This document shows, piece after piece, positions 17,246 through 33,570 of a stretch of DNA of 64,000 nt. The notes below the pieces were generated by a model. It was not told the DNA's origin. It made no database searches and saw only the letters and a program-made list of their open reading frames with translations. The position numbers were made by a program, and so were the translations under genes. Numbering within the stretch: position 1 is the stretch's first letter; each line of letters starts with the position of its first letter. Source of the stretch: an uncultured Thermoleophilia bacterium (GTDB lineage Bacteria; Actinomycetota; Thermoleophilia; Gaiellales; Gaiellaceae); assembly GCA_963806025.1 (NCBI GenBank), contig CAWDWI010000013.1:100478-164477 (forward strand), given 5' to 3'.

Positions 17246-18439
17246 GTGATCGACGATCAGGAGGACGGCCGGCCCGCGGTCCGCCGTCTCGGCTCCGACC
17301 TTGCCCAGGGCGAGGACCGCGGAGCCTCGACCGGGAACTGGCTCCGGGCGGAGCGTGAGCACCTGGTCGTGCACGACTACGACACGGTCGACCGGGACCT
17401 CGAACGCCTCGGCATGACGATCTCGCGGCTCCCATCGGAGGCCGGAGTCGTCTGGCGCCTCACGCTCCCGCACGGCGAGCGGGTCGAAGCATGGGAGCCG
17501 GGAAACGCGGGGTTGGCTCTGCCCGCCGAGATCCTGCGGCTGGTCTCCGGCGTCGTCGGCGGCAAGGGGCTGATCCCTTCCGCGCCTGTCAGCAGCGACG
17601 GCGGCGCCGCGCGCCTTCGCCAAATGCTCGAGGCGCAACGTCGCGCACTGCTCGTCCACGATCCAGGCGTTCGCCTCGGCTCCTCTCCCGAGAACGTCCG
17701 CCGGCACCGTGTCGCAGCGCGCCGCAGCCGCACCTTCCTCCGCGCGACGCGTGCCTACGTCGACCCGAACTGGCGTCGCAGCCTGGCACAGCCCCTCAGC
17801 CGCCTGAGTGAGACGACCGGACCGGCCCGCGACCTCGACGTCCTGCTCGAGCATCTCGGCGCGGAACTGGAGCGGCTCGACGAGGCGGATCAGCCCGGGG
17901 CTGCCAGCCTGCTGGCAACTCTCGAGCATCGCCGCGACGAGGCCCAGCGGCGGCTGCTGGAAGCGCTGAACGAGGAGTCGTACCAGCAACTGCTTGCGCG
18001 GCTCCATCTCCCTCCCCGCCTTCGGGCAGGCGTGGAGGCGATCCCACTCGAGCGAATCGCGCGGCGCGAGTTTCGCACGCTCACGAAGACGACCAAGCGC
18101 CTTGGGCCTCGCCTGGAGGACAGCCAGCTGCACGAGCTGCGGATCTCGCTCAAGCGCGCGCGCTACGCCGCCGAACTGTCTGCAGCGACCGGAGCCTCGG
18201 CCGACTTGTTCTTCGAGGCTGCGAAGACGCTGCAAGGCCTCCTCGGCGAGCATCAGGACGCCGCCGTCGCCGAGTCGCTTCTTCGTGAAGCTACGGTCGT
18301 CGACAAATCGACGGCCGCAGCGTTCGTCGCGGGCAGGATCGCCGAGCGGCAGCCGGCGCGCATGGCTCGCGCGAAGGATCAGATTCCGGCGGCGTGGCGG
18401 CGGTTGCGGAAGCGCGGCTCGCGCCTGTACCGCGGCTGA
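17246..18439 (+). CDS. CHAD domain-containing protein with a short CYTH-like N-terminus
   Basis: HELRISLKRARYAAEL and LGEHQDAAVAE are typical CHAD helices. The N-terminal HDYDTVDRDLERLGMTISR...WRLTLP resembles the CYTH core. Confidence 0.65.
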   Translation: MIDDQEDGRPAVRRLGSDLAQGEDRGASTGNWLRAEREHLVVHDYDTVDRDLERLGMTISRLPSEAGVVWRLTLPHGERVEAWEPGNAGLALPAEILRLVSGVVGGKGLIPSAPVSSDGGAARLRQMLEAQRRALLVHDPGVRLGSSPENVRRHRVAARRSRTFLRATRAYVDPNWRRSLAQPLSRLSETTGPARDLDVLLEHLGAELERLDEADQPGAASLLATLEHRRDEAQRRLLEALNEESYQQLLARLHLPPRLRAGVEAIPLERIARREFRTLTKTTKRLGPRLEDSQLHELRISLKRARYAAELSAATGASADLFFEAAKTLQGLLGEHQDAAVAESLLREATVVDKSTAAAFVAGRIAERQPARMARAKDQIPAAWRRLRKRGSRLYRG

Positions 18440-19967: not shown

Positions 19968-20666
19968 TCAGTTGGTCGAAGGACTTGCAACCGGCGGAGA
20001 CGCGTCCGGCGTGCCGCTCAGATCGACGATCTTCGTCGCCCGCAACGTCGGCGGGGTGCCCTGGCACCTGACGACCCACACGTGCAACCGGTCGCCGGGG
20101 GCGAGCGCCGAGAGATCCACAGCAGCACCGTTCTTCAGGATGGAGGTATCGCCGGTGACGGCGACCGAGAAGGTTTTCGGGCCCTCGGCGCCGTTCGACG
20201 TGAAGCTGATGCTGCGGGCCCCGACCACCGCGACGGGAGCCGTGAAATCTCCGCGTGCGCAGCCGGCGGCCGCAGGGGGAGCCGGCGGGCTCACCGGGGC
20301 CGTGTCGCCGTTCGCCGGCCCGACGCCCACCAGTGTCAGCGAGACGAGCGCGACCTCGGTCGGCCCGCCGCCTCCCTGACAGGTCCGAACCTGAGCGACG
20401 ACCTTCTGCCCGACCGCGAGAGCCGTCACACCGACGGGTCGATCCTGCTTGCGAATCTGGGTGCGCGGGAGCAGTCGGAAGCTCACCGGACGATCCTGGC
20501 CGGCAACCTTCAACGCCACTCCATCGGCACTCAGTGCCTGAATCACCGCTCCGAACCGCTGGGTCGTGCACGAGCGACCGTCACTTCGCCCGACCGCTCC
20601 GGCACTTGCCGCAACGACCGCCGAGAGCCCGAGCGCGAACAGGGCGACCACGAACAATCTCCGCAT
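19968..20666 (-). CDS. Secreted hypothetical protein
   Basis: ATG at 20666 gives the signal peptide MRRLFVVALFALGLSAVVAASAGA. There are two similar halves (..VAGQDRPVSFRLLPRTQI.. / ..VAVTGDTSILKNGAAVD..). The track ORF is extended to 20921. Confidence 0.5.
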   Translation of the reverse strand: MRRLFVVALFALGLSAVVAASAGAVGRSDGRSCTTQRFGAVIQALSADGVALKVAGQDRPVSFRLLPRTQIRKQDRPVGVTALAVGQKVVAQVRTCQGGGGPTEVALVSLTLVGVGPANGDTAPVSPPAPPAAAGCARGDFTAPVAVVGARSISFTSNGAEGPKTFSVAVTGDTSILKNGAAVDLSALAPGDRLHVWVVRCQGTPPTLRATKIVDLSGTPDASPPVASPSTN

Positions 20667-20702
20667 GTTTTTCTTCCTTCCTGGCACAACGTTGTCCGAC
20701 CG

Positions 20703-21023
20703 GACATCGACGCCGGCGTTCAGGCCCTCGATCCCTCGATCAGACTCGGCACCGCAGCGCTGAACAATCTCGCTCTGCTCAACCGAGCCGACGGCGACCT
20801 GACACGCGCGCTCGAACTGACCGAAGAGGCGCTCGTCCTGGCCGTCACCGTCGGCGACCGCCACCGCGAGGCCGCGCTCCTGAACAACGCCGCCGACCTG
20901 CTGCAGGCGGCCGGCCGGCACGACGAGGCGATGGAGCGGCTCGAGTCGGCGGTCGCGATCTTCGCCGAGATCGGCGAGGAGGGAGCGATGGAGCCCGAGA
21001 TCTGGAAGCTCGTCGACTGGTGA
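20703..21023 (+). pseudogene. Orphan C-terminal fragment of a TPR-containing regulator (AfsR/SARP-type tail)
   Basis: LNNLALLNRADGDLTRALELTEEALVLAVTVGDRHREAALLNNAADLLQAAGRHDEAMERLESAVAIFAEIG...EPEIWKLVDW* looks like the last TPRs and tail of large actinobacterial regulators. There is no matching N-terminal body and no plausible start. Confidence 0.35.
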
Positions 21024-21067
21024 TTTGCTTGCAAACTCACGTTCTTCCTGGTTATCTGGGGGAAGGG

Positions 21068-23206
21068 ATGGGGGTGCTGAGGCCTGCGGCGGTACGCGGC
21101 CTTCGGCGTGTGACGCGCTTGCTGGCGGTCGCAGTCGTGGCTCTCCTCGGCGTGGTCCTCGTGCCTCAGGCCTTCGCGGGCACGTTCGTCGTCACGAACA
21201 CGGCCGACTCGGGCGCGGGATCCCTGCGTCAGGCGATCATCGATTCGAGCTCGGCCTCCGGCTCGGAGATCGATTTCGCCATCGGCACCGGCGTCCAGAG
21301 GATCACCCTCGCTTCACCGCTGCCGGTCATCACCTCACCGGTCGTCATCAACGGCCTGACCCAGCCGGGCGTCAATCCTCCCGACATCGTGCTCGACGGA
21401 AGCCAGTGCTCCGCTCAATCCGGGCCTTGCGAGGGCCTGGTCGTCCAGTCGGGCGGCTCGACGATCGAGGGCCTCGCGGTGGTGGGCTTCGCAGGGCGCG
21501 GCGTCGTCTTCGACGGGAGTGAGACGGGGCTCGGCGGCAACACCCTCGAGTCGTCCTTCGTCGGCTGGGATCCGGGCAGCTCCGCCTTCAACGGGAACGA
21601 CGACACCGGGGTGGCGATCGTCTCGAGCCCCAACAACCACATCGGGAGCGGCAGCGCCGGTGGGCGCGTGGTGATCGGCGGGAACGGTGGCGAAGGCAGC
21701 CTGACTGAGCTCCAGATCACCGGTACCGGGAGCTCGGGCAACACCGTCGCGGGCGACTGGATCGGGCTCGGAGCAGACGGGACCAGCTCCGCAGACTCCC
21801 TCAACGGAATTGTCATCACGGGCAGCGCACACGACAACACGATCGGCGGCAAGGACACCGTCGGCAACACTCTGTACGCCTTCGGCCAGGATGCCGTCGA
21901 CGTCCGGAACGCAGGCAGCGGCAACGTCGTCGCCGGCAACTCGATCGGCCTCGATGCCAACGGTGCCATGAACCAGCACAGCGACACCGGAATCGGCGTC
22001 GAGAGCAGCCCGGGCACGGTGATCGGCGACAGCGCAGTCCCGCCGGAAATCGCCGACCCGACGTTCGGCAACGTGATCGTCGGCGCGACGGGCGACGTCG
22101 GCATCATCGTCACGGGCGCCTCGGACGGGACCTCGATCGCCGGCAACTTCATCGGCACCGACCGGCAGGGGAGCGCCGGGCTCGGGAACGACCAGGGTGT
22201 CCGCGTGATCGGCGCAACCGGCAAGGCGACGATCGGTCCCGGCAACACGATCACCGGCAACACGACCGACGGTGTCCAGATCGACACGTCCTCCGGACAG
22301 CGCATCGTCGCCAACTCGATCTTCGGCAACGGCGGCAAGGGCATCCTCCTCACCCCGGGCGCCAACGACGACATCGCCGCGCCGGTGATCACGGACGCCT
22401 CGACGGCGGGCGGAACGACGACCGGGCACGGCACCTTCCAAGGCTCCCCGAACGCGCCGGCCTTCATCGAGCTCTTCAGCAGCCCGAGCTGCGACCCGAA
22501 CGGCAGCGGCCAGAACTACCTCGGCTCGGTCACCCCAACAGCCGACGGCAACGGGTCGGGTCAGTTCTCGTTCTCCTTCCCGACGGGCCCGGGCACGGCG
22601 TTCCTCACGGCAACCACCACCGACACGGCGACCGTGGACACATCGGAGTTCTCGAGCTGTCTCGCGTCGACCGTGGTCGGCTCGCTCTCGGCCACGCTCT
22701 CGCAGCCTGTGAACCAGGACATCGACCTCACAGCCGCCGGCCCGCTGGACTGGGCTGTCTGGGGGTTCGGCAACAGCGCCTCGCTTACCGCCAACGTACG
22801 CAAGGCGGGCGGAGCGGGCATCAGCGATCTCAGCCCCAGCACTCCGAGCGACGGCCCGGCGCGGAACTTCGGCCAATTCGCGTTCCCGCTCGTGCCCTTC
22901 GGCTTCGACTGGTCGAACGGAATCGCGCCCGCCTCGGCCACGCACGCGAGTGCAGGCATCACCGCGCCGCAGGCTGGACAGGGCTTCTCGTTCACGGTTC
23001 CTGCCGATACGACCCTGCGCACGCTGACGGTCTGGACGTCGTCGCACTACGCGGACGGGACGCTGACAGCGACCCTCTCCGACGGAAGCGCTCAGCCCTT
23101 CAGCTTCACCGTCCATGCGGTCGCCGGTCAGTTCACGAACACGGGAGAGAACGTCCCGGAGGTCTTCGCGCTCACCTACGCGCTGCGCAGAGCGGCCAGC
23201 AACTGA
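21068..23206 (+). CDS. Giant secreted protein, part 1: signal peptide, right-handed parallel beta-helix (PbH1) repeats, beta-sandwich domain
   Basis: ATG 21068 gives MGVLRPAAVRGLRRVTRLLAVAVVALLGVVLVPQAFA, then TNTADSGAGSLRQAI. Many repeats of the type NxIxGNxIG follow (GNTVAGDWIG, GNVVAGNSIG, SIAGNFIG, NTITGN, IVANSIFGN). It probably continues into 23263..28536 across a frameshift. Confidence 0.75.
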   Translation: MGVLRPAAVRGLRRVTRLLAVAVVALLGVVLVPQAFAGTFVVTNTADSGAGSLRQAIIDSSSASGSEIDFAIGTGVQRITLASPLPVITSPVVINGLTQPGVNPPDIVLDGSQCSAQSGPCEGLVVQSGGSTIEGLAVVGFAGRGVVFDGSETGLGGNTLESSFVGWDPGSSAFNGNDDTGVAIVSSPNNHIGSGSAGGRVVIGGNGGEGSLTELQITGTGSSGNTVAGDWIGLGADGTSSADSLNGIVITGSAHDNTIGGKDTVGNTLYAFGQDAVDVRNAGSGNVVAGNSIGLDANGAMNQHSDTGIGVESSPGTVIGDSAVPPEIADPTFGNVIVGATGDVGIIVTGASDGTSIAGNFIGTDRQGSAGLGNDQGVRVIGATGKATIGPGNTITGNTTDGVQIDTSSGQRIVANSIFGNGGKGILLTPGANDDIAAPVITDASTAGGTTTGHGTFQGSPNAPAFIELFSSPSCDPNGSGQNYLGSVTPTADGNGSGQFSFSFPTGPGTAFLTATTTDTATVDTSEFSSCLASTVVGSLSATLSQPVNQDIDLTAAGPLDWAVWGFGNSASLTANVRKAGGAGISDLSPSTPSDGPARNFGQFAFPLVPFGFDWSNGIAPASATHASAGITAPQAGQGFSFTVPADTTLRTLTVWTSSHYADGTLTATLSDGSAQPFSFTVHAVAGQFTNTGENVPEVFALTYALRRAASN

Positions 23207-23262
23207 CAGTCACCTGGACGGAGGCCGCGAGCAACGGCTGCTTACCTGCCTGCGACGACGTC

Positions 23263-26200
23263 GTGATCTACGCTGCCGCGCTTGCCGCCGGCCAGGGCAG
23301 CACCCCCACGGGCGTGGCGAGCAACCTCACGGGCGCGGGGTCCGTGGCCATGTCCGGCCCGAACGACCCGATCTCGAGCATCCCACTGAGCGCCTTCGCG
23401 CCCGCGCAGCCCGGCGTGACGCCCGCGCCGATCAACGGGCTGCCGATCAACGGGCTCCCGATCAACGGGCTCCCGATCAACGGCCTGCCGATCAACGGCC
23501 TGCCGATCAACGGGCTCCCGATCAACGGGCTCCCGATCAACGGCCTGCCGATCAACGGGCTCACCATCAGCGGGTTCCCCATCAACGGGCTGCCGATCAA
23601 CGGCCTGCCGATCAACGGGCTCCAGATACCCGGCGGCTGGACAGCCGTGCTGGCCGGAACCGCGCTCGCCGGGAAGCCGTTGCAGACGATCACCCTGCAA
23701 CAGGTGCTCGCGCTCAACCCGCAGCCCGCGGCGGTTCGCAACCTCACGCTCGGGAACCTCCTGGTCGCAGACAGCGCGCTCGGTCAGGAGACGATCGGGG
23801 CACTGACGCTCGGCACGACGCCGATCAACCGCTTCGGGACCGAGGCAGCATCGATCGAGACCCAGCTTCAGGCCTGGTGCACGGGTGTGGCCGGCGCCGC
23901 GAACTGCTCGCTCGCCTCGATCGGCAGCCAGAACCTCTTCGCGCTCAGTCTCGCCGGTGCACCCATCAACGGCCTGCCGATCAACGGGCTCCCGATGAAC
24001 GGCCTGCCGATCAACGGCCTCCCGATCAACGGGCTGCCGATCAACGGGCTCAACCTGTCCGCTTCGCCGATCAACGGGCTCCCGATCAACGGCCTGCCGA
24101 TCAACGGGCTCCCGATCAACGGGCTTCCCGCGGTCACACTCGCCACCGTCGTGGACTGCACGAAGGCCGGCGTCCACTGCCTGAGCAGCCAGACGCTCGG
24201 GGAGGCGGCGGCCCTCGGAGGGATCAAGTCGACCGCCACCATCCTCGACCTGCTGCGGATCCTGCTGGCGGACGGAAGCCCGGTACAGAACACGCTGACG
24301 CTCGGAGACGTGATGGGCCTGCTGATCAAGAGCGCCGACGTCCCCTGGGAGACGCTCCCGCCCCGCCTCCTCTCGGTGTTCGACACCAGCCGCCCGACCG
24401 CGCACATGAACGCCAACTTCACCTTGCAGGGCACAGGGCAGGGGACCGGGAGCGCGACCGTCAAGGTGACGCTGCCGGCGGGCTTCGACTTCAAGCCGGG
24501 CTCCGCCCAGCTGCAGATCGGCGGTCCACCGTCCGCGGGCCTCGGCGACCCGACGATCGATACGCAGGCGAACACACTGACCTGGACCGTCCCGAACGTG
24601 CCCTTCAACACGCCGTCGACCATTTCCTTCGACACGTGGTCGGGAAGCAGCGTCGGGCCGACGCAGGCAACCGAGTCCGTGACGTCGGGCGGCTTCACCG
24701 GGTCAGGCACGGTGCCGTTCTCCGTCACCGACGGCTTCGACAACAACACACCCGCGACGGCCACGACGATCTCGCCCGACACGAACGTCGAGATGTCGGC
24801 GATCGCGAGCCCGGGCGAGGTCGACTACTACAAGATCCCGATGCCGCCCGCGGGGACGCGACTGCTGGTGCACCTGACGAACCTGCCCGCCGACTACGAC
24901 CTCGCGCTCTATTCGCCGACGACGACGTCTGTCCGCACCGGCACGTCCGCCGTCCCCGGCCCGCCGCTCCAGGACGGAACGATCGCCGACCAGTCGCTCA
25001 GCCTGCAGAACGGCGGCTCGAACACGCAGCTGACGCCGACCGCACTGCAGGACATCCCCGATCCGGGCATCCCCGTCGTTCAGGTCTCGGCGAACCGCGG
25101 CACCGACGACGAGGACGTGGGCATGGTCTCCCCTGGGGGCGGCGGGTTCGCCACGATCGCCGTCTTCGGCTACAACGGCGCGTCGAGCCCCGACCCGTAC
25201 TCGCTGCGCGTCACGACGCAGGCGCCACCCGGCATCAACTGTTCGCCTCGGACGTTGACCGGCGGCACCGCCGGAACGGTGCCGAGCATCGCGTCCCTGC
25301 CAAGCAACCTGAACACCCTGATCCTCGTCAACGAGAAGCGGATCGGAGCCACCTACGGCGCAGCGGACGAGACGAGCGTCGTCTCGTCGCTCACCCATCT
25401 CGCCGGTGACGCGACGCTCGGCGTCAGCGGCGCTGTCATCCCGGTCGAAGGGCTCGCCCAGGCCCAGTACACCGCCTGGGACGCCAACCCGTGCAACGTC
25501 AACGCGGCGAACGCCGTCGCGAACGCGATCGCCGACGAGATTGCTGCGGTCAAGACGCAGCGCCCTGGCCTCAAGTACGTGGTCTTCGCCGGCGGTGACG
25601 ACCAGATCCCGTTCTTCCGGACCCCCGATCTCTCGCGGATCGCGAACGAGACCGGCTTCGCCGGCATGTTCAACAACAACGAGTACTACGGCGCGCTGGC
25701 AAGCAGCGACCTGCTCACCGACAACCCGTACCTCGACACCCGGCCCGTCCCCGCCAGCGGGCGGCAACTCTTCATCCCCGACCTCGCCGGCGGCCGCCTC
25801 GTCGAGACCCCAACGCAGATCGCGAACGCCGTCACGAGCTTCGAGAACTCGAACGGGACGCTCCGCAGCTCCACAGCGTTCGTCTCGGGCTACGACTTCG
25901 TCACCGACGGAAGCCAGCTCGTCACGCAGCGGCTTCAGTCGATTCTCGGGACGCCCTCGGTGAAGAGCCTGATCGACACGACCACCCCGTTCGTGCCCGC
26001 GACGTCCTGGTCGAAGAACGGCCTGCTCAACGCAGCATTCCCGCCGCTCGGCCAGGCGGCGATCAACGACTGGAACGGCCACTACGACAACACGCGCGCC
26101 CTGATGGCAAACGGCGACCTCCTGTCGGCCTCCGAACTGACGGGGACACACGCCTTCTCCGGCGGCATCTTCCTCACGATGGGCTGCCACGCCGGCTTCC

Positions 26201-28536
26201 AGACGACCGACGCGATCATCGGGACACCCGTGGCCGACTGGGCGCAGTACTTCGCCGGCACCGGTACCGGCTTCGTGGGCAATACGGGCTTCGGCCTCGG
26301 CAACACGGACAGCGTCGCCTTCTCCGAAGAGCTGATGGCCGACTTCGCCGGCCATCTCGATCGGACCGTTTCGATCGGTCAGGCACTCAACCTCGCGAAG
26401 GAGGATTACTTCCTCTCGCGCGATGCCTTCAGCTCCTACGACGAGAAGACGCTCTCGGAAGCCGAGCTCTACGGCCTGCCGATGTACGGCGTCGGCGCCC
26501 CGCCGGCCCCGCTCGGGGCGCCCGCCCCGTCGCCGCGCACGTTGCCGGATCCGGTGCGCGGCACCGCGAGCTCCACGAGCCCCTCCACCGGCCTGCTCGC
26601 CCCGTTCGCAGGGTCCGTGCAGGCCGCGGGCTTCGACGTCACGCCGATCTTCTCCACCCCGGCAACCCCCGGCCAGCACGGCAGCTACTACACGAACGCC
26701 GGACAGGTTCAGGCGCCGAACTACCGGCCGCTCCAGCCGTACGTGACGCTGCCGGCGAGCCGCACCAACATGACCGCGCACGGCGTCGTGATCGACACCC
26801 TCGCCAGCGAGGACCACACGGGGTTCAACCCGGACAACGTGCGGCCGACCGTCGACCTGACCGCGAACGAGCCAGAGCCGCAGTTCACCGACCAGGCCTG
26901 GCCGACCAAGGTGCCGACCCTCGTGTCGCTCACCGACCCGAACGGGCTTCAGCAGCGGCTGAACCTGACGACCGGGCAGTTCTTCACGTCCACGGACGGC
27001 GGCACGCAGACCGAGCGGCTCTGGACGCAGATCGGCGGCCGAGTCACCTATTCCCAGAGCGCGGACTTCGTGCCACCGACCGTCGACCAGATCGACGCTT
27101 ACCTCACAGGCAGCACCGTGACGTTCACCGGGCACTTCAGCGATCGCACCGAAACCGGTGCCGCCGGCACCGTCACGTTCGCCCAGGTCGTGTACGACGT
27201 CAACAACACCGGCACCTGGAAGAGCGTGCAACTCGTTCAGGACGGGACCGGCGCCTGGTCGGGCGGCGCGCCGTTCACCGGAACGCGTGTGCAGTACTTC
27301 GCCGAGGTCTGCGACGCCGCCGGCAACTGCGGCTACAGCTCCAACAAGGGACGCTATTTCGACGCCGTGCCTCTGCCGACGACGACGGGCTCGATCACGC
27401 TCACGCCAAGCGGCACGGTCGGAACCGGCGGTTGGTACAGGAGCAGCGTCAACGTCACCGGAACCAGCTCGACCCCAGGCGTGACGATCACCGTCAGCGT
27501 GGACGGCGGCCCGTTCGCGCCGATTCCGGACACGGGGATCACGCTCACGGGCGACGGCGCACACACGCTCAAGGCGCTGGGCTCGGACGGCTCCAAGGCG
27601 ACGACCGTCGTCCTGATCGACAAGACGGCGCCCACGATCGCGTTCGCACCGAGCACCGTGGCTTTCGGTTCACACGTGCCGGCCTTCACGTGCCTCGACA
27701 GCGGATCCGGCGCCGCAGTGTGCGCAGGCACCCAGAACGGTTTGCCGGCCAACGGCGGCGATCTGCTGAAGACGTCGAGCGTGGGAACCGTTCAACTGAC
27801 CGCGCACGCCACCGACGTCGTCGGCAATCAGGTCGACGCCGCCCAGACGGTGCAGATCGTCAAGGCAACGCCGACCCTGACCTGGCCCGCGCCGGCCCCG
27901 ATCAGCTACGGCACCAAGCTCAGCGCGATCCAGCTGAACGCAACCGCCTCGGCCAACAGCCTCCCCCTGCCGGGCACCTTCTCCTACAGCCCGCCGGCAG
28001 GCACCGTTCTGGCGCCGGGCAGCCAGACGCTCTCGGTCACGTTCACGCCGACCGATTCGACCGACTACACCACCGTTTCGAAGAGCGTCACCATCTCGGT
28101 CGGCTTCACACAAGCGTGCATCACCACGAGCAGGACCGGCCCATTGACCGTCGCGAACGGCCAATCCGTCTGCGTCTCGAGCGGCGGCAAGCTGGTCGGC
28201 CCTGTGACGGTGCAGGCGGGCGGCTCGCTCTGGATCAACGGTGGTGCCGTCACCGGCCCGTTCACCGCGACGAGCGCGGCCGTTCTGACGCTGTGCGGCT
28301 CGACGATGACCGGGCCTGTCACCGTGACCACATCGGTCGGCTACGTCCTCTTCGGCGGCACGGGCTGCGCCGGCAACACGTTCACCGGGCCCGTCAGCGT
28401 CACGAAGGGCACAGGTGGCCTCAGCTTCGTCGGCAACAAGGTGGTCGGGCCGCTGACGATCACCAACAACAAGGGCGGCTTCGCCTACTCCGGGAACACG
28501 GTCACCGGCCCTGTGACCGTCTCCGGAAACAGCTGA
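23263..28536 (+). CDS. Giant secreted protein, part 2: PINGL pentapeptide arrays, DUF11/CARDB-like domain, PPC (pre-peptidase C-terminal) domain, putative clan-CD peptidase-like core, Ig-like domains, C-terminal TGPVTV solenoid
   Basis: 1757-aa ORF with no signal peptide of its own. PPC-like GEVDYYKIPMPPAGTRLLVHLTNLPADYDLALYSP. A His..Cys pair (WNGHYDN / FLTMGCHAGF). An Ig-like segment (TPTLTWPAPAPISYGTKLSAIQLNATAS...TFSYSPPAGTVLAPGSQTLSVTFTPTDSTDYT). Confidence 0.75.
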   Translation: MIYAAALAAGQGSTPTGVASNLTGAGSVAMSGPNDPISSIPLSAFAPAQPGVTPAPINGLPINGLPINGLPINGLPINGLPINGLPINGLPINGLPINGLTISGFPINGLPINGLPINGLQIPGGWTAVLAGTALAGKPLQTITLQQVLALNPQPAAVRNLTLGNLLVADSALGQETIGALTLGTTPINRFGTEAASIETQLQAWCTGVAGAANCSLASIGSQNLFALSLAGAPINGLPINGLPMNGLPINGLPINGLPINGLNLSASPINGLPINGLPINGLPINGLPAVTLATVVDCTKAGVHCLSSQTLGEAAALGGIKSTATILDLLRILLADGSPVQNTLTLGDVMGLLIKSADVPWETLPPRLLSVFDTSRPTAHMNANFTLQGTGQGTGSATVKVTLPAGFDFKPGSAQLQIGGPPSAGLGDPTIDTQANTLTWTVPNVPFNTPSTISFDTWSGSSVGPTQATESVTSGGFTGSGTVPFSVTDGFDNNTPATATTISPDTNVEMSAIASPGEVDYYKIPMPPAGTRLLVHLTNLPADYDLALYSPTTTSVRTGTSAVPGPPLQDGTIADQSLSLQNGGSNTQLTPTALQDIPDPGIPVVQVSANRGTDDEDVGMVSPGGGGFATIAVFGYNGASSPDPYSLRVTTQAPPGINCSPRTLTGGTAGTVPSIASLPSNLNTLILVNEKRIGATYGAADETSVVSSLTHLAGDATLGVSGAVIPVEGLAQAQYTAWDANPCNVNAANAVANAIADEIAAVKTQRPGLKYVVFAGGDDQIPFFRTPDLSRIANETGFAGMFNNNEYYGALASSDLLTDNPYLDTRPVPASGRQLFIPDLAGGRLVETPTQIANAVTSFENSNGTLRSSTAFVSGYDFVTDGSQLVTQRLQSILGTPSVKSLIDTTTPFVPATSWSKNGLLNAAFPPLGQAAINDWNGHYDNTRALMANGDLLSASELTGTHAFSGGIFLTMGCHAGFQTTDAIIGTPVADWAQYFAGTGTGFVGNTGFGLGNTDSVAFSEELMADFAGHLDRTVSIGQALNLAKEDYFLSRDAFSSYDEKTLSEAELYGLPMYGVGAPPAPLGAPAPSPRTLPDPVRGTASSTSPSTGLLAPFAGSVQAAGFDVTPIFSTPATPGQHGSYYTNAGQVQAPNYRPLQPYVTLPASRTNMTAHGVVIDTLASEDHTGFNPDNVRPTVDLTANEPEPQFTDQAWPTKVPTLVSLTDPNGLQQRLNLTTGQFFTSTDGGTQTERLWTQIGGRVTYSQSADFVPPTVDQIDAYLTGSTVTFTGHFSDRTETGAAGTVTFAQVVYDVNNTGTWKSVQLVQDGTGAWSGGAPFTGTRVQYFAEVCDAAGNCGYSSNKGRYFDAVPLPTTTGSITLTPSGTVGTGGWYRSSVNVTGTSSTPGVTITVSVDGGPFAPIPDTGITLTGDGAHTLKALGSDGSKATTVVLIDKTAPTIAFAPSTVAFGSHVPAFTCLDSGSGAAVCAGTQNGLPANGGDLLKTSSVGTVQLTAHATDVVGNQVDAAQTVQIVKATPTLTWPAPAPISYGTKLSAIQLNATASANSLPLPGTFSYSPPAGTVLAPGSQTLSVTFTPTDSTDYTTVSKSVTISVGFTQACITTSRTGPLTVANGQSVCVSSGGKLVGPVTVQAGGSLWINGGAVTGPFTATSAAVLTLCGSTMTGPVTVTTSVGYVLFGGTGCAGNTFTGPVSVTKGTGGLSFVGNKVVGPLTITNNKGGFAYSGNTVTGPVTVSGNS
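23428..23622 (+). repeat. Tandem 15-bp coding repeat, 13 units (CCGATCAACGGSCTS = Pro-Ile-Asn-Gly-Leu)
   Basis: Counted directly: 195 bp = 13 x 15. One degenerate pair is present (TISGF). A 60-nt higher-order duplication is visible: 23451-23500 is nearly identical to 23511-23560. Confidence 0.95.
23962..24126 (+). repeat. Second tandem 15-bp PINGL coding repeat, 11 units (one PMNGL, one NLSAS interruption)
   Basis: Counted directly: 165 bp = 11 x 15, in the same reading frame as the first array. Confidence 0.95.
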
Positions 28537-28547
28537 GTCGAAGTCCG

Positions 28548-31500
28548 CTAGGGCAGCGGCACGCGCGGCAGGGCGACGATGCCGAGGCGCTCGAGGATCG
28601 CCTCCGCCTCGCTCGCTTCCGCCTCCGAGGCGAAGCCGGTCACAACCTTTGCGTGCAAGGTGCGGCCGAGCTCGTATTCGGCGCCGAGTGAACGTGCAAG
28701 CCGGATGCTCTCGTCGAAATGCGGCTCCCCTTCCTCGGGCGTTCGCGCCTGCACGGCGGCGAGGCCGAGCAGCCGCTCGAGCAGGGCCGAGCGCACGCCG
28801 AGCTCGCCCGCGCTGCGCATGCGCCCTAGGGCCGTCGTCGCCAGCTCGACCACGTCGGCGTGGCGCCCCTCGAGGATGAACGCCTGCGCACGGCGGGCGT
28901 CCGCCTCGATCAGATAGCTCTCCGCACCGAGCGCCTCGAGCTGAGCACGCGCGTCGTCCAGGTATCGGTGGGCTTCGGCGAACCGCCCCTCCTCCGCCGC
29001 GAGGCGGCCGAGATTGATCATCACGAGCGCCTCACCGGCCGGGAACTTCGCCGCCCGGTAGGTGCGCAGCGCGACATCGAACAGCTCCGACGCCTCGTCC
29101 AGACGCCCCTGGTCGAGGAGGATCTCGGCGCGATTGTTCGTCGCATGCCCACCGGTGAGCACGTCGCCGGCCCGCCGGACAACCTCTTCGGAGCGGTGAT
29201 AGAGCGCGAGCGCCTCGTCCCAGGAGCCTTCGTAGTAGGCGCGCACGCCCATGTTGTTGAGGACGGTCGCCTGACGGTGCAGGAGGCCGAGCTCGTCGAA
29301 GATCGCGAGCGCCCGTTCGAGATACTCGCGGGCTGGGCCGCCGCGATCGCCTTCGGCGGCCGCCCGGACGTAATACGCGTCGGCCAGCGTTGCCCGGTCT
29401 CCGAGTGCGGACGCGCCGTCGGCAGCACGCATGGCGGCGGTCGCGCACTCCTCGATCTTTCCCTGCCGGTAGAGAACGATCGCTCGAGCGAGCTCGAGCG
29501 CCACACTGTCGGCCGCGTCCGCGTCCAACGCGCCCCGTTCGTAGAGCTCGAGTGCCTCGTCGTATCTGCCGCGGCGCTCGCTGGCGACACCCTGCTTTCG
29601 CAACAGCCGTGCGGAGGTCCCGCCGTGCTCCAGGGCGCGGCCGTACGCCGCCTCGGCGTCGTCGTACCGCGCCGCCAACTCGCGCACATCACCGAGCGCC
29701 TCGCACACCCGCGCCACATCCCCACTGTCCGGATCGAAGTGCCCCGCGGCGGCGAGCGCGCGCTCGTAGAGCGTCGCGGCGTCGATGTTCGCGTACTTCG
29801 AACGCGCATCGTCGCCGGCCTCGACCGCGTAGGCCCAGGCCTCGTCGAAGCGACCGGCTTCGAGAAAATGCAGCGACAAGACATCCGCCGGCGCCGGCCC
29901 GCCGGCCGACCGGCGCTCGATCGCATCGCCCACGCGCGCGTGAATCTCGCGCCGGCGCGCATACGAGAGACCGTCGTAGGCGGCGGTGCGGACCAGATCG
30001 TGTCGAAAGCGCAGCAGCCCGGGACCGACCCAGTCGACGAAGTCGGCGAGCCTCACCCACTGTTCGGGATCGTTCGCCTCGTCCGGCAGGATCTCGGCGA
30101 GGAGGTCGAGGTCGAAGGTCGGGCCGATCACCGAGGCGTGCCGGAGCAGCAGGCGATCGTTCGCCTCCAGTGTGTCGATGCGAATCGTCAGGAGCGACTC
30201 GACCGTCTCGGGCAACGCGTCGTCATCGGCCGGTGCCACCGCCAGCTCGCGGATGAAGAGCGGGTTGCCGGCCGCGCGCTGGGTGACTGCGGCGAGCTGG
30301 TCCTCGGACAATGCGAGGTCGCCCGCCGCAGCGAGCGCCAGGGCGCGCGCCTCCGCAACGCCAAGCGGCTCGAGCTCGAGTGCCAGGACATCGACGGCGG
30401 CGAGCGGCAGGCCCGACGGGCGCCGCGTGGCGACGATGAGCCAGGGCCGCGGCCCCGGCTGAGCGAGCTTCGCGAGCAGGAGCTGCGAGGCGTCGTCCAA
30501 CCAGTGCACGTCCTCGACCAGCAGGACCGTCGGCATGAGGAGCATGCGGGCCAGGAACTGGTCGAGCACGTCGTGCAGGCGGTCGCGCCGGAACACGGAA
30601 TCGATCTGGTCGACCTCGTCGGTGTCCGGCACGTCGGCGTCGAACGGCAGCGCGAGCAGAGGCAGCCACGGAGCGAGATCCGGCATCACCGTCTGCGCGA
30701 AAGCCGTCAGCTTCGCGCCGGCACTCTCCGGCGACTCATCGGGAAGGGCCCCGATCAGCGGACGGAGCATCGCCCTGAACGGGCCGAACGGCGTCGATGC
30801 CGAATACGGCTCGCAGCGGCCGCGGAGGAACTGAAATCCAAGGGAGATGGCGACGAGCTCCTCGACCAGCCGCGACTTGCCGGCACCCGGCTCGCCGACG
30901 ATCTCCACGGCGCGGCTCTGGCGCAGCCGCGCAGCGTCGACCGCCCCCGCCAGCAGCGCGAGCTCGTGCTCACGGCCGAAGAGCGGCAAAAGCGGGCGTG
31001 TCTCCTCGATCGTCTCGGTGCTGACCGCGCCGACCGCATGACCGGTGACCGGCCTCGCCTTCCCCTTCATCAGAAACTGGCGCGCCGTGGTGTCGAACCT
31101 CGTACGTGCCCTTTGCAGCACGTCACCCGTGGCCAGGATCTCGCCCTGTTCGGTCCGCGCCGCCAGCCTCGCTGCGAGGTTCACGGTGTCGCCCATCACG
31201 GCGTAGGTCGTCCGGATCGACGAGCCGATCGGCCCTGCGAGGACGGGACCGCGGTTCACACCGACACCGATCGCCGGCCCGACGCCTGCGTCGACGATCG
31301 CGCGCACCGCGCGGAGCATCCGATCTTCATCGTCACCCGCGCTCGACGGTGCGCCGGCGACGAGGTAGAGCTTGCCGCCGTCGTGGTCGATGTCGGACTC
31401 GAGCCAGGTGATGCCCAGCTCGTCTGTCTCGGACGAAACCGCGTCAGCCAGGGCGGCGAGCGCCGCCGCGGCCTCGTCGGGCGCCTCGACGAGCTGATCC

Positions 31501-32267
31501 GTCCCGCTGAACTTCACGAACGCGACGGTCACCTGCCGATGCTCGGCTTCGATCGCCCCGGTTGCGATCGGGCCGCGAAGCGTCGACGGCAGGAGGGCGG
31601 CGAGGTCGCCCAGGCCGTCCGGCTCTTCCTCCAGCAGAGGCGGTTCGGCAACCGCAGCGTCGCTGCGGAGCAGGAAGGCGCCGTCGCGTTCCGCCGCGAC
31701 CAGCCCCTCGAGCGCCTCGGCCGTCCGAGCCGAAACGAGCACCTCGCCCGACTCGGCCGCGTCCTCGAGCCCGAGCGTCGCCGAGGCGGCGGGGCCGCAG
31801 ACGATCAGCTCGCGGTGCGACCGGCCGACGAGGAAGAAGTGGCACTGCCCCGAGACGAGGCCGGCTGCCATGGCGAGGCGGACGGGGCCGACGCTCGACT
31901 CGCCGGATCCCGACTCGGCGACGAATGCCTGCATCGCGAGCGCAGCGCGTGCTGCTCGCTCCTCGTGCCGGTCGCCGTCGAAGAGCAGGAGCAGCGCGTC
32001 GCCACGGAACTTCAGGACGTCTCCGCCATAACGCTTCCCGATGTCGATCAGGCCGGAGTAACACCCGCTGATCAGCATGATCAACTCCTCGGCGCCGAGC
32101 TTGCCGCGCTCCGCGAGCCGCTCCGAAAGGGCCGTGAAGCCCGAGATGTCGAGGCCGAGCAGCGACGCATCCAGGACCCGTCCGACCTCGCCGCTTCGGT
32201 CCCGCTGCCAGGTCGCCGCCAGGCGCGGGACGAACGGCCGGAAGGCCGAGACGGTGTCGGTGATCAC
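28548..32267 (-). CDS. Tandem class III cyclase-homology domains + AAA/STAND ATPase + TPR protein (about 1239 aa)
   Basis: CHD-1: LGLDISGFTALSERL, KFRGDALLLLF. CHD-2: VTVAFVKFSG, YAVMGDTVNLAARLAARTEQGEILATGDV. P-loop IVGEPGAGKSRLVEEL. Long TPR-like C-terminus. GTG at 32267 lies 2 nt after the upstream TAA; the track ORF is extended to 32387. Confidence 0.8.
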   Translation of the reverse strand: MITDTVSAFRPFVPRLAATWQRDRSGEVGRVLDASLLGLDISGFTALSERLAERGKLGAEELIMLISGCYSGLIDIGKRYGGDVLKFRGDALLLLFDGDRHEERAARAALAMQAFVAESGSGESSVGPVRLAMAAGLVSGQCHFFLVGRSHRELIVCGPAASATLGLEDAAESGEVLVSARTAEALEGLVAAERDGAFLLRSDAAVAEPPLLEEEPDGLGDLAALLPSTLRGPIATGAIEAEHRQVTVAFVKFSGTDQLVEAPDEAAAALAALADAVSSETDELGITWLESDIDHDGGKLYLVAGAPSSAGDDEDRMLRAVRAIVDAGVGPAIGVGVNRGPVLAGPIGSSIRTTYAVMGDTVNLAARLAARTEQGEILATGDVLQRARTRFDTTARQFLMKGKARPVTGHAVGAVSTETIEETRPLLPLFGREHELALLAGAVDAARLRQSRAVEIVGEPGAGKSRLVEELVAISLGFQFLRGRCEPYSASTPFGPFRAMLRPLIGALPDESPESAGAKLTAFAQTVMPDLAPWLPLLALPFDADVPDTDEVDQIDSVFRRDRLHDVLDQFLARMLLMPTVLLVEDVHWLDDASQLLLAKLAQPGPRPWLIVATRRPSGLPLAAVDVLALELEPLGVAEARALALAAAGDLALSEDQLAAVTQRAAGNPLFIRELAVAPADDDALPETVESLLTIRIDTLEANDRLLLRHASVIGPTFDLDLLAEILPDEANDPEQWVRLADFVDWVGPGLLRFRHDLVRTAAYDGLSYARRREIHARVGDAIERRSAGGPAPADVLSLHFLEAGRFDEAWAYAVEAGDDARSKYANIDAATLYERALAAAGHFDPDSGDVARVCEALGDVRELAARYDDAEAAYGRALEHGGTSARLLRKQGVASERRGRYDEALELYERGALDADAADSVALELARAIVLYRQGKIEECATAAMRAADGASALGDRATLADAYYVRAAAEGDRGGPAREYLERALAIFDELGLLHRQATVLNNMGVRAYYEGSWDEALALYHRSEEVVRRAGDVLTGGHATNNRAEILLDQGRLDEASELFDVALRTYRAAKFPAGEALVMINLGRLAAEEGRFAEAHRYLDDARAQLEALGAESYLIEADARRAQAFILEGRHADVVELATTALGRMRSAGELGVRSALLERLLGLAAVQARTPEEGEPHFDESIRLARSLGAEYELGRTLHAKVVTGFASEAEASEAEAILERLGIVALPRVPLP

Positions 32268-32269
32268 TC

Positions 32270-32686
32270 TTACACCGCGTCTGGCGGGAGCCGCTCGGCG
32301 AGCGCCTGCAGGACCTTCTCGCCCACCGACGGCATCGCGTGCGTGACGCGCCGAAACGCGCGGTCGGTGAGGATCAGCAGATGGCACGGCGTCGTCGTCG
32401 TGACCGTGGCCGTCCGTGGGATCCCGGTCAGAAGCGCGATCTCACCAAGGAAGTCGCCGTCACCGAGGGTGTTGAGCTGCTCGCCCTTCCTGGACACTTC
32501 CGCGCTGCCGCTCACGAGCACCACGAACTCGCGGCCGCTTTGCCCCTCGACGGTGAGCGCGCGCCCGGCGGAAACGTCGAGCTCGTCGGCCTCAGCGGCG
32601 ATCGCCGCCAGCTCGCCCTTCGAGCAGCGCGCGAACAGCGGCACGGTTCTCAGCAGCTCCACCTTCGCGTTGCGGCGTAGCGCCAT
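32270..32686 (-). CDS. Stand-alone cyclic nucleotide-binding (CAP-family) domain protein, no HTH
   Basis: LLRTVPLFARCSKGELAAIA and the phosphate-binding cassette FLGEIALLTGIPRTATVTT. About 138 aa from ATG 32686 (alternative start 32719). The stop is 2 nt from the cyclase start. Confidence 0.8.
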   Translation of the reverse strand: MALRRNAKVELLRTVPLFARCSKGELAAIAAEADELDVSAGRALTVEGQSGREFVVLVSGSAEVSRKGEQLNTLGDGDFLGEIALLTGIPRTATVTTTTPCHLLILTDRAFRRVTHAMPSVGEKVLQALAERLPPDAV

Positions 32687-32757
32687 CGAGGCGATCGTAG
32701 TCGATCGCACACCTTCCAACTACGACGCCCCCGGTGAGTCGACTACGGTTCGCCCCC

Positions 32758-33570
32758 GTGAAGGCGCGGATCTGGGGATGCCGAGGCTCACTCGCCACAC
32801 CGGGCGAGACGACCGTGCGTTACGGCGGCAACACGACGTGCCTCGAACTGCGGAGCGCCGGCGGTGCGGTCGTCGTCATCGACGCAGGCACCGGCATCCG
32901 GAATCTCGGCCGCGCACTGGCCGACGAGTCGCTCCACCACCTCGACCTGCTCCTGACCCATCTCCACCTCGACCACATCGAGGGCCTCGGCTTCTTCGCG
33001 CTCCTGTTCGATCCGGAATCGACGATCAAGATCCACGGCCCCCGGCCGGCGGACGGCACGCTCAAGGAGAAGATCGCCGCGTACCTCTCCCCTCCGTACT
33101 TCCCCGTTCCCTTCGAACGGATCGATGCCAGGCTGAGCTTCGAGGAGATCGAGACGGACTCGTGGGACATCAACGGCCTGCGCATCTCCTCGGCTCCCGT
33201 GTGCCACCCGGGGCCGACGCTCGCGTACCGCATCGAAGAACACGGCGCGACATTCGCGTTCATTCCCGACAACGAGCCCGGGCTCGAGCCCGACTCGGGG
33301 CTCACGATCGCGGGCGGCGCGGATGTCCTCCTGCACGACTCTCAGTACACGGACGAGGAGTACACGACGCGCGTCGGGTGGGGCCACACCTCATTGAGCG
33401 ACTTCGCGACGTATCTTCGCGCCGCCGCTCCGCGGCGCGCCGTGATGGTCCACCACGATCCCGCGCACGCGGACACGCAGCTCGAAGAGATGCTGGCAGA
33501 GGCGCAAACTGCCTCCGGGCACGACGATCTCTCGCTCGGCCACGAGGGCCTCGAGATCGAGATCGGTTGA
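32758..33570 (+). CDS. MBL-fold metallo-hydrolase (candidate cyclic-nucleotide phosphodiesterase by context)
   Basis: VKARIWGCRGS N-terminus, HLHLDH (HxHxDH) motif, and HDSQY / GHTS / VHHDP later ligands. The alternative start at 32734 is from the track. Divergent from the cNMP-binding gene. Confidence 0.7.
   Translation: MKARIWGCRGSLATPGETTVRYGGNTTCLELRSAGGAVVVIDAGTGIRNLGRALADESLHHLDLLLTHLHLDHIEGLGFFALLFDPESTIKIHGPRPADGTLKEKIAAYLSPPYFPVPFERIDARLSFEEIETDSWDINGLRISSAPVCHPGPTLAYRIEEHGATFAFIPDNEPGLEPDSGLTIAGGADVLLHDSQYTDEEYTTRVGWGHTSLSDFATYLRAAAPRRAVMVHHDPAHADTQLEEMLAEAQTASGHDDLSLGHEGLEIEIG

Follow-up and report, generated by a model that had tools for sequence, protein, structure and literature searches.

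PINGL pentapeptide arrays in a giant gene of a soil Gaiellales bacterium, read as one lineage's version of a family-wide repeat module

What are two head-to-tail arrays of a 15-nucleotide (nt) unit, encoding the pentapeptide PINGL over and over, within one very large gene? This question is raised by a 64,000-nt stretch of DNA from an uncultured Thermoleophilia bacterium of the Gaiellaceae (contig CAWDWI010000013.1), which is called the window below and to which all coordinates refer. An earlier note, made from the letters alone, had counted 13 + 11 in-frame 15-bp units at 23428-24126 with a 113-amino-acid (aa) spacer between them in the open reading frame (ORF) 23263-28536, and our recount gave exactly the same. 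On comparison of sequences, we consider the PINGL arrays to be the Gaiellales version of a repeat, [P/Q]-[LIV]-x-x-[ISLT], that runs through a whole protein family, and both arrays, the spacer and the following Cys-containing region would together be one structural module. Its parts are as follows.

23428-23622, plus strand: array 1, aa 56-120 of ORF 23263-28536, 13 units (PINGL nine times, TISGF, PINGL three times)
23563-23577, plus strand: TISGF, unit 10 of array 1 (ACC ATC AGC GGG TTC)
23623-23961, plus strand: spacer domain of 113 aa, QIPGGW...WC...C...LAGA, with invariant Trp, Trp-Cys and Cys
23962-24126, plus strand: array 2, 11 units (PINGL twice, PMNGL, PINGL three times, NLSAS, PINGL four times)
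23992-24006, plus strand: PMNGL, unit 3 of array 2
24052-24066, plus strand: NLSAS, unit 7 of array 2, the conserved break
24127-24357, plus strand: conserved region after array 2, part of the module, with the Cys pair DCTKAGVHC, helices and the end VPWETL

The whole module is aa 772-1097 of the host protein after the repair of one base, which is described below. Both arrays (195 nt and 165 nt) keep a strict tandem period of five residues over 13 and 11 contiguous units, respectively. The 24 units comprise 21 exact PINGL and one each of TISGF, PMNGL and NLSAS, with Pro in 22 of the 24. Tandem Repeats Finder scored a period of 15 at 285 and a period of 60 at 334 with 93% matches. The pattern CCGATCAACGGSCTS, allowing at most one mismatch, matched 22 times, always in register within both arrays, at a chance expectation of 0.05. 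The TISGF unit carries four nucleotide changes relative to its neighbours, while other units have almost none; it is common to the window and one near-identical locus (L006) only, and PINGL stands in its place in the related loci L003, L001 and L004.

Is this element peculiar to one genome? A search with the 113-aa spacer retrieved 155 representative clusters (50% identity level, E ≤ 1e-3) out of 1.84 billion, and the representatives newly listed by this search together with 82 homologues made a set of 224 distinct proteins. Period-5 arrays were present in 179 of these 224 proteins, with as many as 96 different dominant units, and one dominant unit prevailed across all arrays in 118 of the 142 proteins with multiple arrays, just as PINGL stands on both sides of the spacer in the window. 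The consensus of the 96 units is P (75/96) or Q, followed by L/I/V, x, S/G/A/N and I/S/L/T: L, I or V fills position 2 in 67 of them and I, S, L or T position 5, while variation is free at positions 3 and 4, which are polar. Examples other than PINGL are PLNGL/PLNAL, QLNGL, QLANT, QLGHT/QLGQT, PINTL, PIQGL and PISNI, and also PVNQT, PIDGI, PLRSV, SPLRG, PLGSI, PVGST and PIGKS. Wherever the region is intact in a homologue, there are always at least two pentapeptide arrays at the same place, built from a lineage-specific unit.

The layout around the units is conserved as well. In an alignment of 30 module segments (A1), W87, W166, C167 and C176 of the spacer, which is about 115 aa long across the family, are invariant, and C260 and C267 after array 2 are nearly invariant or invariant. 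The five-residue break (N/D)-x-S-A-S, which follows unit 6 in array 2, persists in distant members as DLTGT, DVAGS or STSAS. The window module has this family layout, namely the NLSAS break in array 2 and then the Cys pair DCTKAGVHC, and is located N-terminal to a Peptidase_C25-like domain. All of four distant members tested have arrays, which are followed by a C25-like domain in two (P0172 and P0095), with no such domain detected in the other two (P0101 and P0143). P0172, a protein of 3,075 aa, contains nine spacer matches and 14 PLGSI arrays, and in view of such multi-module members the two-array layout of the window is the short form of an expandable architecture. The spacer-plus-array module is also repeated many times in P0101, P0220 and P0156. 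Thus, at the level of sequence, the comparison establishes a module that is family-wide and conserved in length, whose units are homogenised and in which P and Q are interchangeable.

The (PINGL)n search proposed in the earlier note gave a divided answer: it is true that no annotated family covers PINGL, but the repeat is not isolated, being one lineage's form of a widespread module. Four PINGL-coding units in a row, sought as a DNA pattern in Joint Genome Institute (JGI) metagenomes, occurred in five contigs, each of them from the same family. Neither the arrays nor the spacer are covered by a Pfam or NCBIfam model, and the source annotations of family members are generic ('hypothetical', 'CSLREA domain-containing', 'choice-of-anchor Q'). 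A cluster look-up of 10 distant members returned no informative names, and an exact look-up of P0001, which is identical to the 3' part of the host gene product, returned no record. Likewise, literature searches on PINGL and on CSLREA gave nothing relevant, nor did one that joined pentapeptide repeats with concerted evolution. The module, spanning at least 155 clusters and 96 units, is thus described neither by any curated model nor by the literature searched, and it may serve as a handle for annotating giant C25-like secreted proteins, which are common in the metagenome-assembled genomes (MAGs) of soil Thermoleophilia.

Units that are uniform within a protein and different between proteins call for replacement across whole arrays, which indicates concerted evolution. 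One relative (L024/P0083) makes this directly visible: its spacer has 83% DNA identity to that of the window, the same divergence as in L001, which keeps PINGL. Array 1 of L024, however, consists of one PINGL and then 13 PLNGL arranged in blocks of identical codons, with the rare Gly codon GGA in seven adjacent units, and its array 2 is a mosaic of PINGL and PLNGL. In array 1 of L025 (about 1430-1700), PINGL and QINGL strictly alternate over about 12 units as a 10-residue super-repeat, which points to duplication of a two-unit block. From such patterns we infer that units are rebuilt by slippage or conversion while their count stays near 13-14, a clear bacterial case of concerted evolution within a coding sequence under a length constraint.

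How, then, does PINGL stand to the pentapeptide-repeat proteins of the repeated-five-residue (Rfr) fold? It had been noted before that PINGL lies outside the classical A(D/N)LXX consensus, and indeed no Pfam or NCBIfam model recognises the unit. Its separation from the family was only partly sustained, since PINGL itself is unmatched but homologous arrays in relatives are linked. P0041, whose unit is QLANT, passes Pfam Pentapeptide_4 (PF13599) with 39.5 against a gathering score of 38, and P0027 (QLNGL) reaches 19 bits. The top matches of the A1 profile among PDB sequences were pentapeptide-repeat chains, namely 4yfo (1.9e-9), 2j8k (2e-5), 3du1 (1.4e-4) and the Qnr protein 3pss (1.3e-3). In the register of the profile alignment, Ile occupies the centre i, Leu i-2 and Pro i-1, so that PINGL, numbered as a pentapeptide repeat, becomes L(i-2) P(i-1) I(i) N(i+1) G(i+2); this Ile aligns with the centre Leu of the PDB pentapeptide-repeat chains, being aliphatic yet neither Leu nor Phe. 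AlphaFold2 modelled array 1 of the P0041 module (alignment A2) as 13 'EEE--' units with a predicted local distance difference test score (pLDDT) of 47-68, and Foldseek with this model retrieved almost solely pentapeptide-repeat beta-helices: alr1298 (1.2 Å over 60 columns), Np275 (1.6 Å over 66), AlbG, MfpA, Qnr and the SV2 luminal domain. Moreover, L025, L021, P0032 and P0109 have arrays that combine P with Q units, and therefore both kinds must fit one structure.

Taking these data together, we favour, with somewhat better than an even chance, the reading that the arrays are a solenoid-like element of fixed length in a disulfide-stabilised module, which holds the protease half of a secreted multidomain protein apart or presents it. 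The I and L of each unit would point into the core of a beta-solenoid and P, N and G outwards, and this solenoid would be related to the right-handed quadrilateral beta-helix, which has four units per coil, but altered by one proline per unit. It may be a rigid stalk or spacer surface of fixed length that lies between the N-terminal beta-helix on one side and the protease on the other. Slippage and gene conversion between 15-nt units would homogenise the units within an array and between both arrays, while selection would keep their number near 13 and 6 + 1 + 4. Among 21 homologues with a complete module, at about 57-87% protein identity, the count of array 1 is 12-14 in 18 and 6-7 in the outliers, and the positions of PMNGL (unit 3) and NLSAS (unit 7) of array 2 are kept in several orthologues. 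This conserved count, the hydrophobic in/out pattern, the positional break and the interchangeability of P and Q support a defined structure, and the alternation of inward and outward residues across the family fits a solenoid. The idea of a solenoid or stalk, raised in the earlier note, is kept as the most plausible role, and both the fold and the mechanical role of the arrays are inferred.

Several results weigh against this reading. AlphaFold2, as suggested for the window module in the earlier note, gave no confident fold of the PINGL arrays: they are left unfolded at pLDDT 32-48, with 'HHH--' rather than strands by DSSP, while in the same model the spacer is at pLDDT 73-94 and module residues 251-300 at 72-80. 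Foldseek of the window model against PDB returned 0 matches, the spacer included. With phmmer, (PINGL)13 or (PLGSI)13 gave no significant pentapeptide-repeat match in PDB, and no Pfam Pentapeptide model matched aa 41-306 of the window ORF even at E ≤ 10. In QnrC and QnrA1, function is lost when i-1 becomes Pro (S153P, in QnrC) or i-2 becomes bulky (C72Y, A97Y) (PMC2964730), and every PINGL unit has both Pro at i-1 and bulky Leu at i-2. Where the Rfr fold takes a small residue at i-2 (A/C/S/T/V), Leu is found in every PINGL unit, and where it takes Asp/Asn at i-1 and no coil proline, Pro is found in 22 of the 24 units. In addition, the model of P0041, our positive control, reached only moderate confidence (pLDDT 47-68), and the matches of the A1 profile may be inflated by the shared 5-residue periodicity.

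Some other matches were set aside. The PDB hits of (PINGL)13 and (PLGSI)13 to polygalacturonase, V-ATPase and leucine-rich repeat (LRR) proteins were regarded as noise. Sub-threshold matches to Lamprin, Extensin_1, GLTT and CefA, a ribosomally synthesised and post-translationally modified peptide (RiPP) with Cys at every fifth residue (17.6 against 30 bits), were composition-driven and spurious, and an LRR-like reading was dropped because period 5 is incompatible with LxxLxLxxN.

Owing to the two breaks of the Rfr rules, the lack of a Pfam match and the lack of a confident model, PINGL is kept out of the classical family, and we regard it as a proline-type derivative of, or a sister to, the pentapeptide-repeat family. 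Proline-type arrays may tentatively represent a solenoid geometry unseen in solved structures, in which prolines form a ladder at i-1 and i-2 is bulky, though we hold this to be doubtful. The family offers a natural series from the canonical-looking TQLAN to LPING, which breaks two fold rules, and this series probes the limits within which the quadrilateral beta-helix can accommodate proline and a bulky core, a matter of use in repeat-protein design.

The low confidence of the array models leads to the alternative that the arrays are flexible or extended proline linkers, as polyproline-like or elastin-like turn spirals without a stacked core, which tether the protease region to the N-terminal beta-helix. 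Both arrays stay at pLDDT 32-48 with one short turn per unit ('HHH--'), every unit brings a proline with Asn-Gly turn formers, the weak Pfam matches are solely to Lamprin and Extensin-like low-complexity families, and Pro at i-1 is disruptive in true pentapeptide-repeat proteins. On the other hand, Ile and Leu make up 40% of the residues at fixed periodic positions, which is odd for a solvent-exposed linker, the unit number is conserved across 57-87% identity, the NLSAS break is positionally conserved, and Gln-type units, which occur at the same position and are mixed with Pro-type ones, were modelled as a beta-helix. We thus consider linkers unlikely, if worth keeping in mind. Far less probable is a cassette of cleavage sites or peptides, with one cut in each unit by the C25-like protease of the same protein or by a partner, whether to release many copies of one lineage-specific pentapeptide or to use up the cassette as a sacrificial, timed pro-region; the unit sequence would then co-evolve with protease specificity. 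The arrays are indeed upstream of the C25-like domain here, as they are in close homologues and, among the four distant members tested, in P0172 and P0095, and the units, including their outward-facing residues, are identical within a protein yet lineage-specific, a pattern that this alternative, if true, would explain. The variable positions are often N, D, R or K, residues used at P1 by clan-CD proteases: legumain cleaves after Asn, caspases after Asp and gingipains after Arg/Lys. Many units, however, have only G, S and A at the variable positions (PLGSI, PLSSI, PMSAI), the conserved period of hydrophobic residues, together with the break and the folded spacer, speaks for a structural element, and concerted evolution alone explains the homogeneity.

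Two further explanations concern the DNA rather than the protein. The earlier note saw recent expansion in the arrays, which would make them a hypervariable variable-number tandem repeat (VNTR) or contingency locus with a strain-variable copy number. For this speak the near-perfect 15-nt direct repeats, the one-unit difference between relatives (13 against 14), the recent block duplications in one relative, and the preference for GGG as the Gly codon (14 of the 21 PINGL units, 18% elsewhere in the gene), which indicates a shared ancestry of units beyond codon bias. However, L006, which belongs to an independently assembled MAG, is 99.9% identical to the window over the 981 nt of the module (one mismatch, no gaps) and has the same 13 + 11 units with the same synonymous pattern, and L003, at about 92% identity, has 14 + 11. 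Comparison of copy number among relatives thus revealed no VNTR behaviour: the near-identical genomes are both 13 + 11, array 1 keeps 12-14 copies in 18 of 21 homologues, and PMNGL and NLSAS are positionally stable. The mean pairwise DNA identity of the 21 PINGL units is 0.919, close to the 0.877 +/- 0.014 expected when codons are drawn from the gene's own usage; the identity is mostly explained by codon bias, with a small excess from GGG and CCG. As for the stretch of about 50 nt said to recur at a 60-nt offset, it exists but is weak (permutation p = 0.019 at an offset of four units, 0.083 after correction for offsets 1-6). A VNTR is thus largely refuted, with only a very slim chance left, and what survives of the expansion idea is that arrays are rebuilt by slippage or gene conversion over longer times, as in L024, with their length held. 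A 60-nt period as a structural coil of four units was also rejected, being not significant after correction, and relatives show duplication blocks of one and two units.

The suspicion of an assembly artefact, by repeat collapse or expansion, has some ground in that the DNA seems to stem from a long-read MAG in which indel errors are scattered and that frame changes occur inside the arrays at the related MAG loci L017, L020 and L021. Still, the two independent assemblies agree across the module save for one mismatch and without gaps, the same architecture recurs in dozens of homologues from other projects, short-read assemblies included, and arrays of 195 and 165 nt are far below long-read length. 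Given the agreement with L006, the arrays are neither an artefact nor a strain-level VNTR, and we give the artefact practically no credence. Apart from this, the arrays seem to be hot spots of indel errors and mis-called genes in public assemblies, and the period-5 units 'ACRST' or 'PADQR' in P0084, P0121 and P0127 are out-of-frame translations of the same DNA repeat.

What protein carries the module? It is probably a secreted, multidomain, protease-like protein of about 2,489 aa from a soil actinobacterium, as judged from its sequence. The earlier description of the ORF as a giant secreted protein is right in that the host is very large and probably secreted, but ORF 23263-28536 (1,757 aa) lacks a signal peptide and is only the 3' part of the gene, which consists of the following features.

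21068-23179, plus strand: 5' part of the gene, with predicted signal peptide, right-handed beta-helix and beta-sandwich-like region ending ...VFALTY
23179/23180, plus strand: 1-nt deletion; the missing 'A' is present in L006 (99% identical) and L003 in the DNA alignment
23180-28536, plus strand: remaining part, read in the same frame as ORF 23263-28536, stop codon 28534-28536; P0001 is 100% identical
25522-26424, plus strand: Peptidase_C25-like domain (gingipain-type, clan CD), aa 754-1054 of ORF 23263-28536
26074-26088, plus strand: NGHYD, candidate catalytic motif within the PF01364 match, catalytic role putative
26182-26196, plus strand: GCHAG, candidate catalytic motif within the PF01364 match, catalytic role putative

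The start codon ATG at 21068 is preceded by GGGGAAGGG, and the N-terminus is a predicted signal peptide, MGVLRPAAVRGLRRVTRLLAVAVVALLGVVLVPQAFA with the cut before G, as judged by eye. The 5' part has weak Pfam matches to NosD and Beta_helix (NosD / Beta_helix / CSLREA type), and the region before ...VFALTY looks beta-sandwich-like on our own reading of the sequence. Because of the A missing at 23179/23180, the frame shifts, which ends the upstream ORF at 23206 and makes 23263 look like the beginning of the repeat ORF. The two split ORFs of the window (20255-23206 and 23263-28536) are one protein in orthologues; in the fused orthologue P0002 (2,355 aa) the junction reads ...VFTLQYAAASAGQHLTVTW..., and restoring one base gives an uninterrupted protein of 2,489 aa from ATG 21068. 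The window differs from L006 at eight scattered indel positions across the gene, and the relatives come from 'MFD' Thermoleophilia/Gaiellales MAGs, whose contig names are typical of long-read assemblers. As scattered indels are a long-read-type pattern, the frameshift is probably a consensus error, although it may be real and the gene a pseudogene. The other indel positions include 22090-22092, 22131, 26534/26540 and 27431, and L006 has its own frameshift elsewhere in the gene.

The order of domains in the repaired protein is signal peptide, beta-helix, beta-sandwich-like region, array module, PPC-like, Peptidase_C25-like and Ig-like, and the conserved Cys pairs together with the signal peptide fit an extracytoplasmic protein. 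The match to PF01364 is marginal here (24.7 bits against a gathering score of 23 bits), with 48.8 bits in P0095 and 26.1 bits in P0172. No recognisable sortase or other anchoring signal was found at the C-terminus of the protein. The C-terminal part of about 190 aa (about 27950-28533) has a looser repeat with the motifs TGPVTV / GPLTI / GPVSV, which resembles another short beta-helix-type repeat and has no Pfam match.

The earlier note also held that the repeat creates three long spurious ORFs. This did not stand: long overlapping ORFs are normal at 69% G+C, and one of comparable kind, an antisense ORF of 953 aa at 24703-27564 on the minus strand, is far from the repeat. This antisense ORF has no coding support, nor does the Arg/Pro-rich 5' extension of the upstream ORF at 20255-21067. 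The neighbouring genes in the window are at 28548-32387 (minus strand), 13102-15312 (minus), 17246-18439 (plus) and 32734-33570 (plus). The convergent neighbour encodes an adenylate/guanylate cyclase + AAA_16 + TPR (MalT-like) protein and is syntenic in L001 and L002, and the further neighbours encode a GGDEF-HD protein, a CHAD-domain protein and a metallo-beta-lactamase-fold protein; no obvious functional link of these neighbours with the repeat protein was seen.

Finally, the module may be compared with several known systems. Like the gingipain-type Peptidase_C25 proteins, the host is large, multidomain and apparently secreted, with a C25-like domain and Ig-like accessory domains, but the similarity is marginal, the C25-like region has no match among PDB sequences by phmmer, and the candidate catalytic dyad is a putative one. 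We know of no described C25 protein with pentapeptide arrays, and a full-text literature search found no paper joining pentapeptide repeat and peptidase C25. A parallel in evolution is offered by bacterial repeat proteins such as the ice-nucleation proteins, whose repeats likewise undergo concerted evolution with their length constrained and are thought to form a regular solenoid surface: both show homogenised units in any one gene, other units in other lineages, and an array length under selection. Unlike theirs, our unit has five residues, not 8/16/48, the protein family and function are unrelated, and no sign of ice or mineral binding was seen, though no search was aimed at it. Elastin-/lamprin-like repeats of the VPGVG type share a 5-residue unit with Pro, Gly and aliphatics, and AlphaFold2 gives one turn per unit for PINGL; the Pfam match to Lamprin, however, is weak and composition-driven (22 bits against a 34-bit cut-off), and the arrays are short, of fixed length and placed between folded disulfide-containing domains.

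A further comparison is with the Rfr proteins (PF00805 / PF13599), which include MfpA, Qnr, AlbG, Np275/276, HetL and the SV2 luminal domain. Shared with them are the strict period of five residues, kept over more than the roughly eight consecutive units that define the family, the aliphatic centre, a second inward position two residues before it and Gly at i+2; moreover, arrays of relatives pass Pentapeptide_4, and one was modelled as a quadrilateral beta-helix. PINGL differs in having Pro for Asp/Asn at i-1 and Leu for a small residue at i-2, and its units are near-identical, whereas those of known members are degenerate. While the known Rfr proteins are small and stand alone, Qnr and MfpA with their protection of topoisomerase being examples, the PINGL arrays appear within a giant secreted protease-like protein that has a spacer domain dedicated to them.

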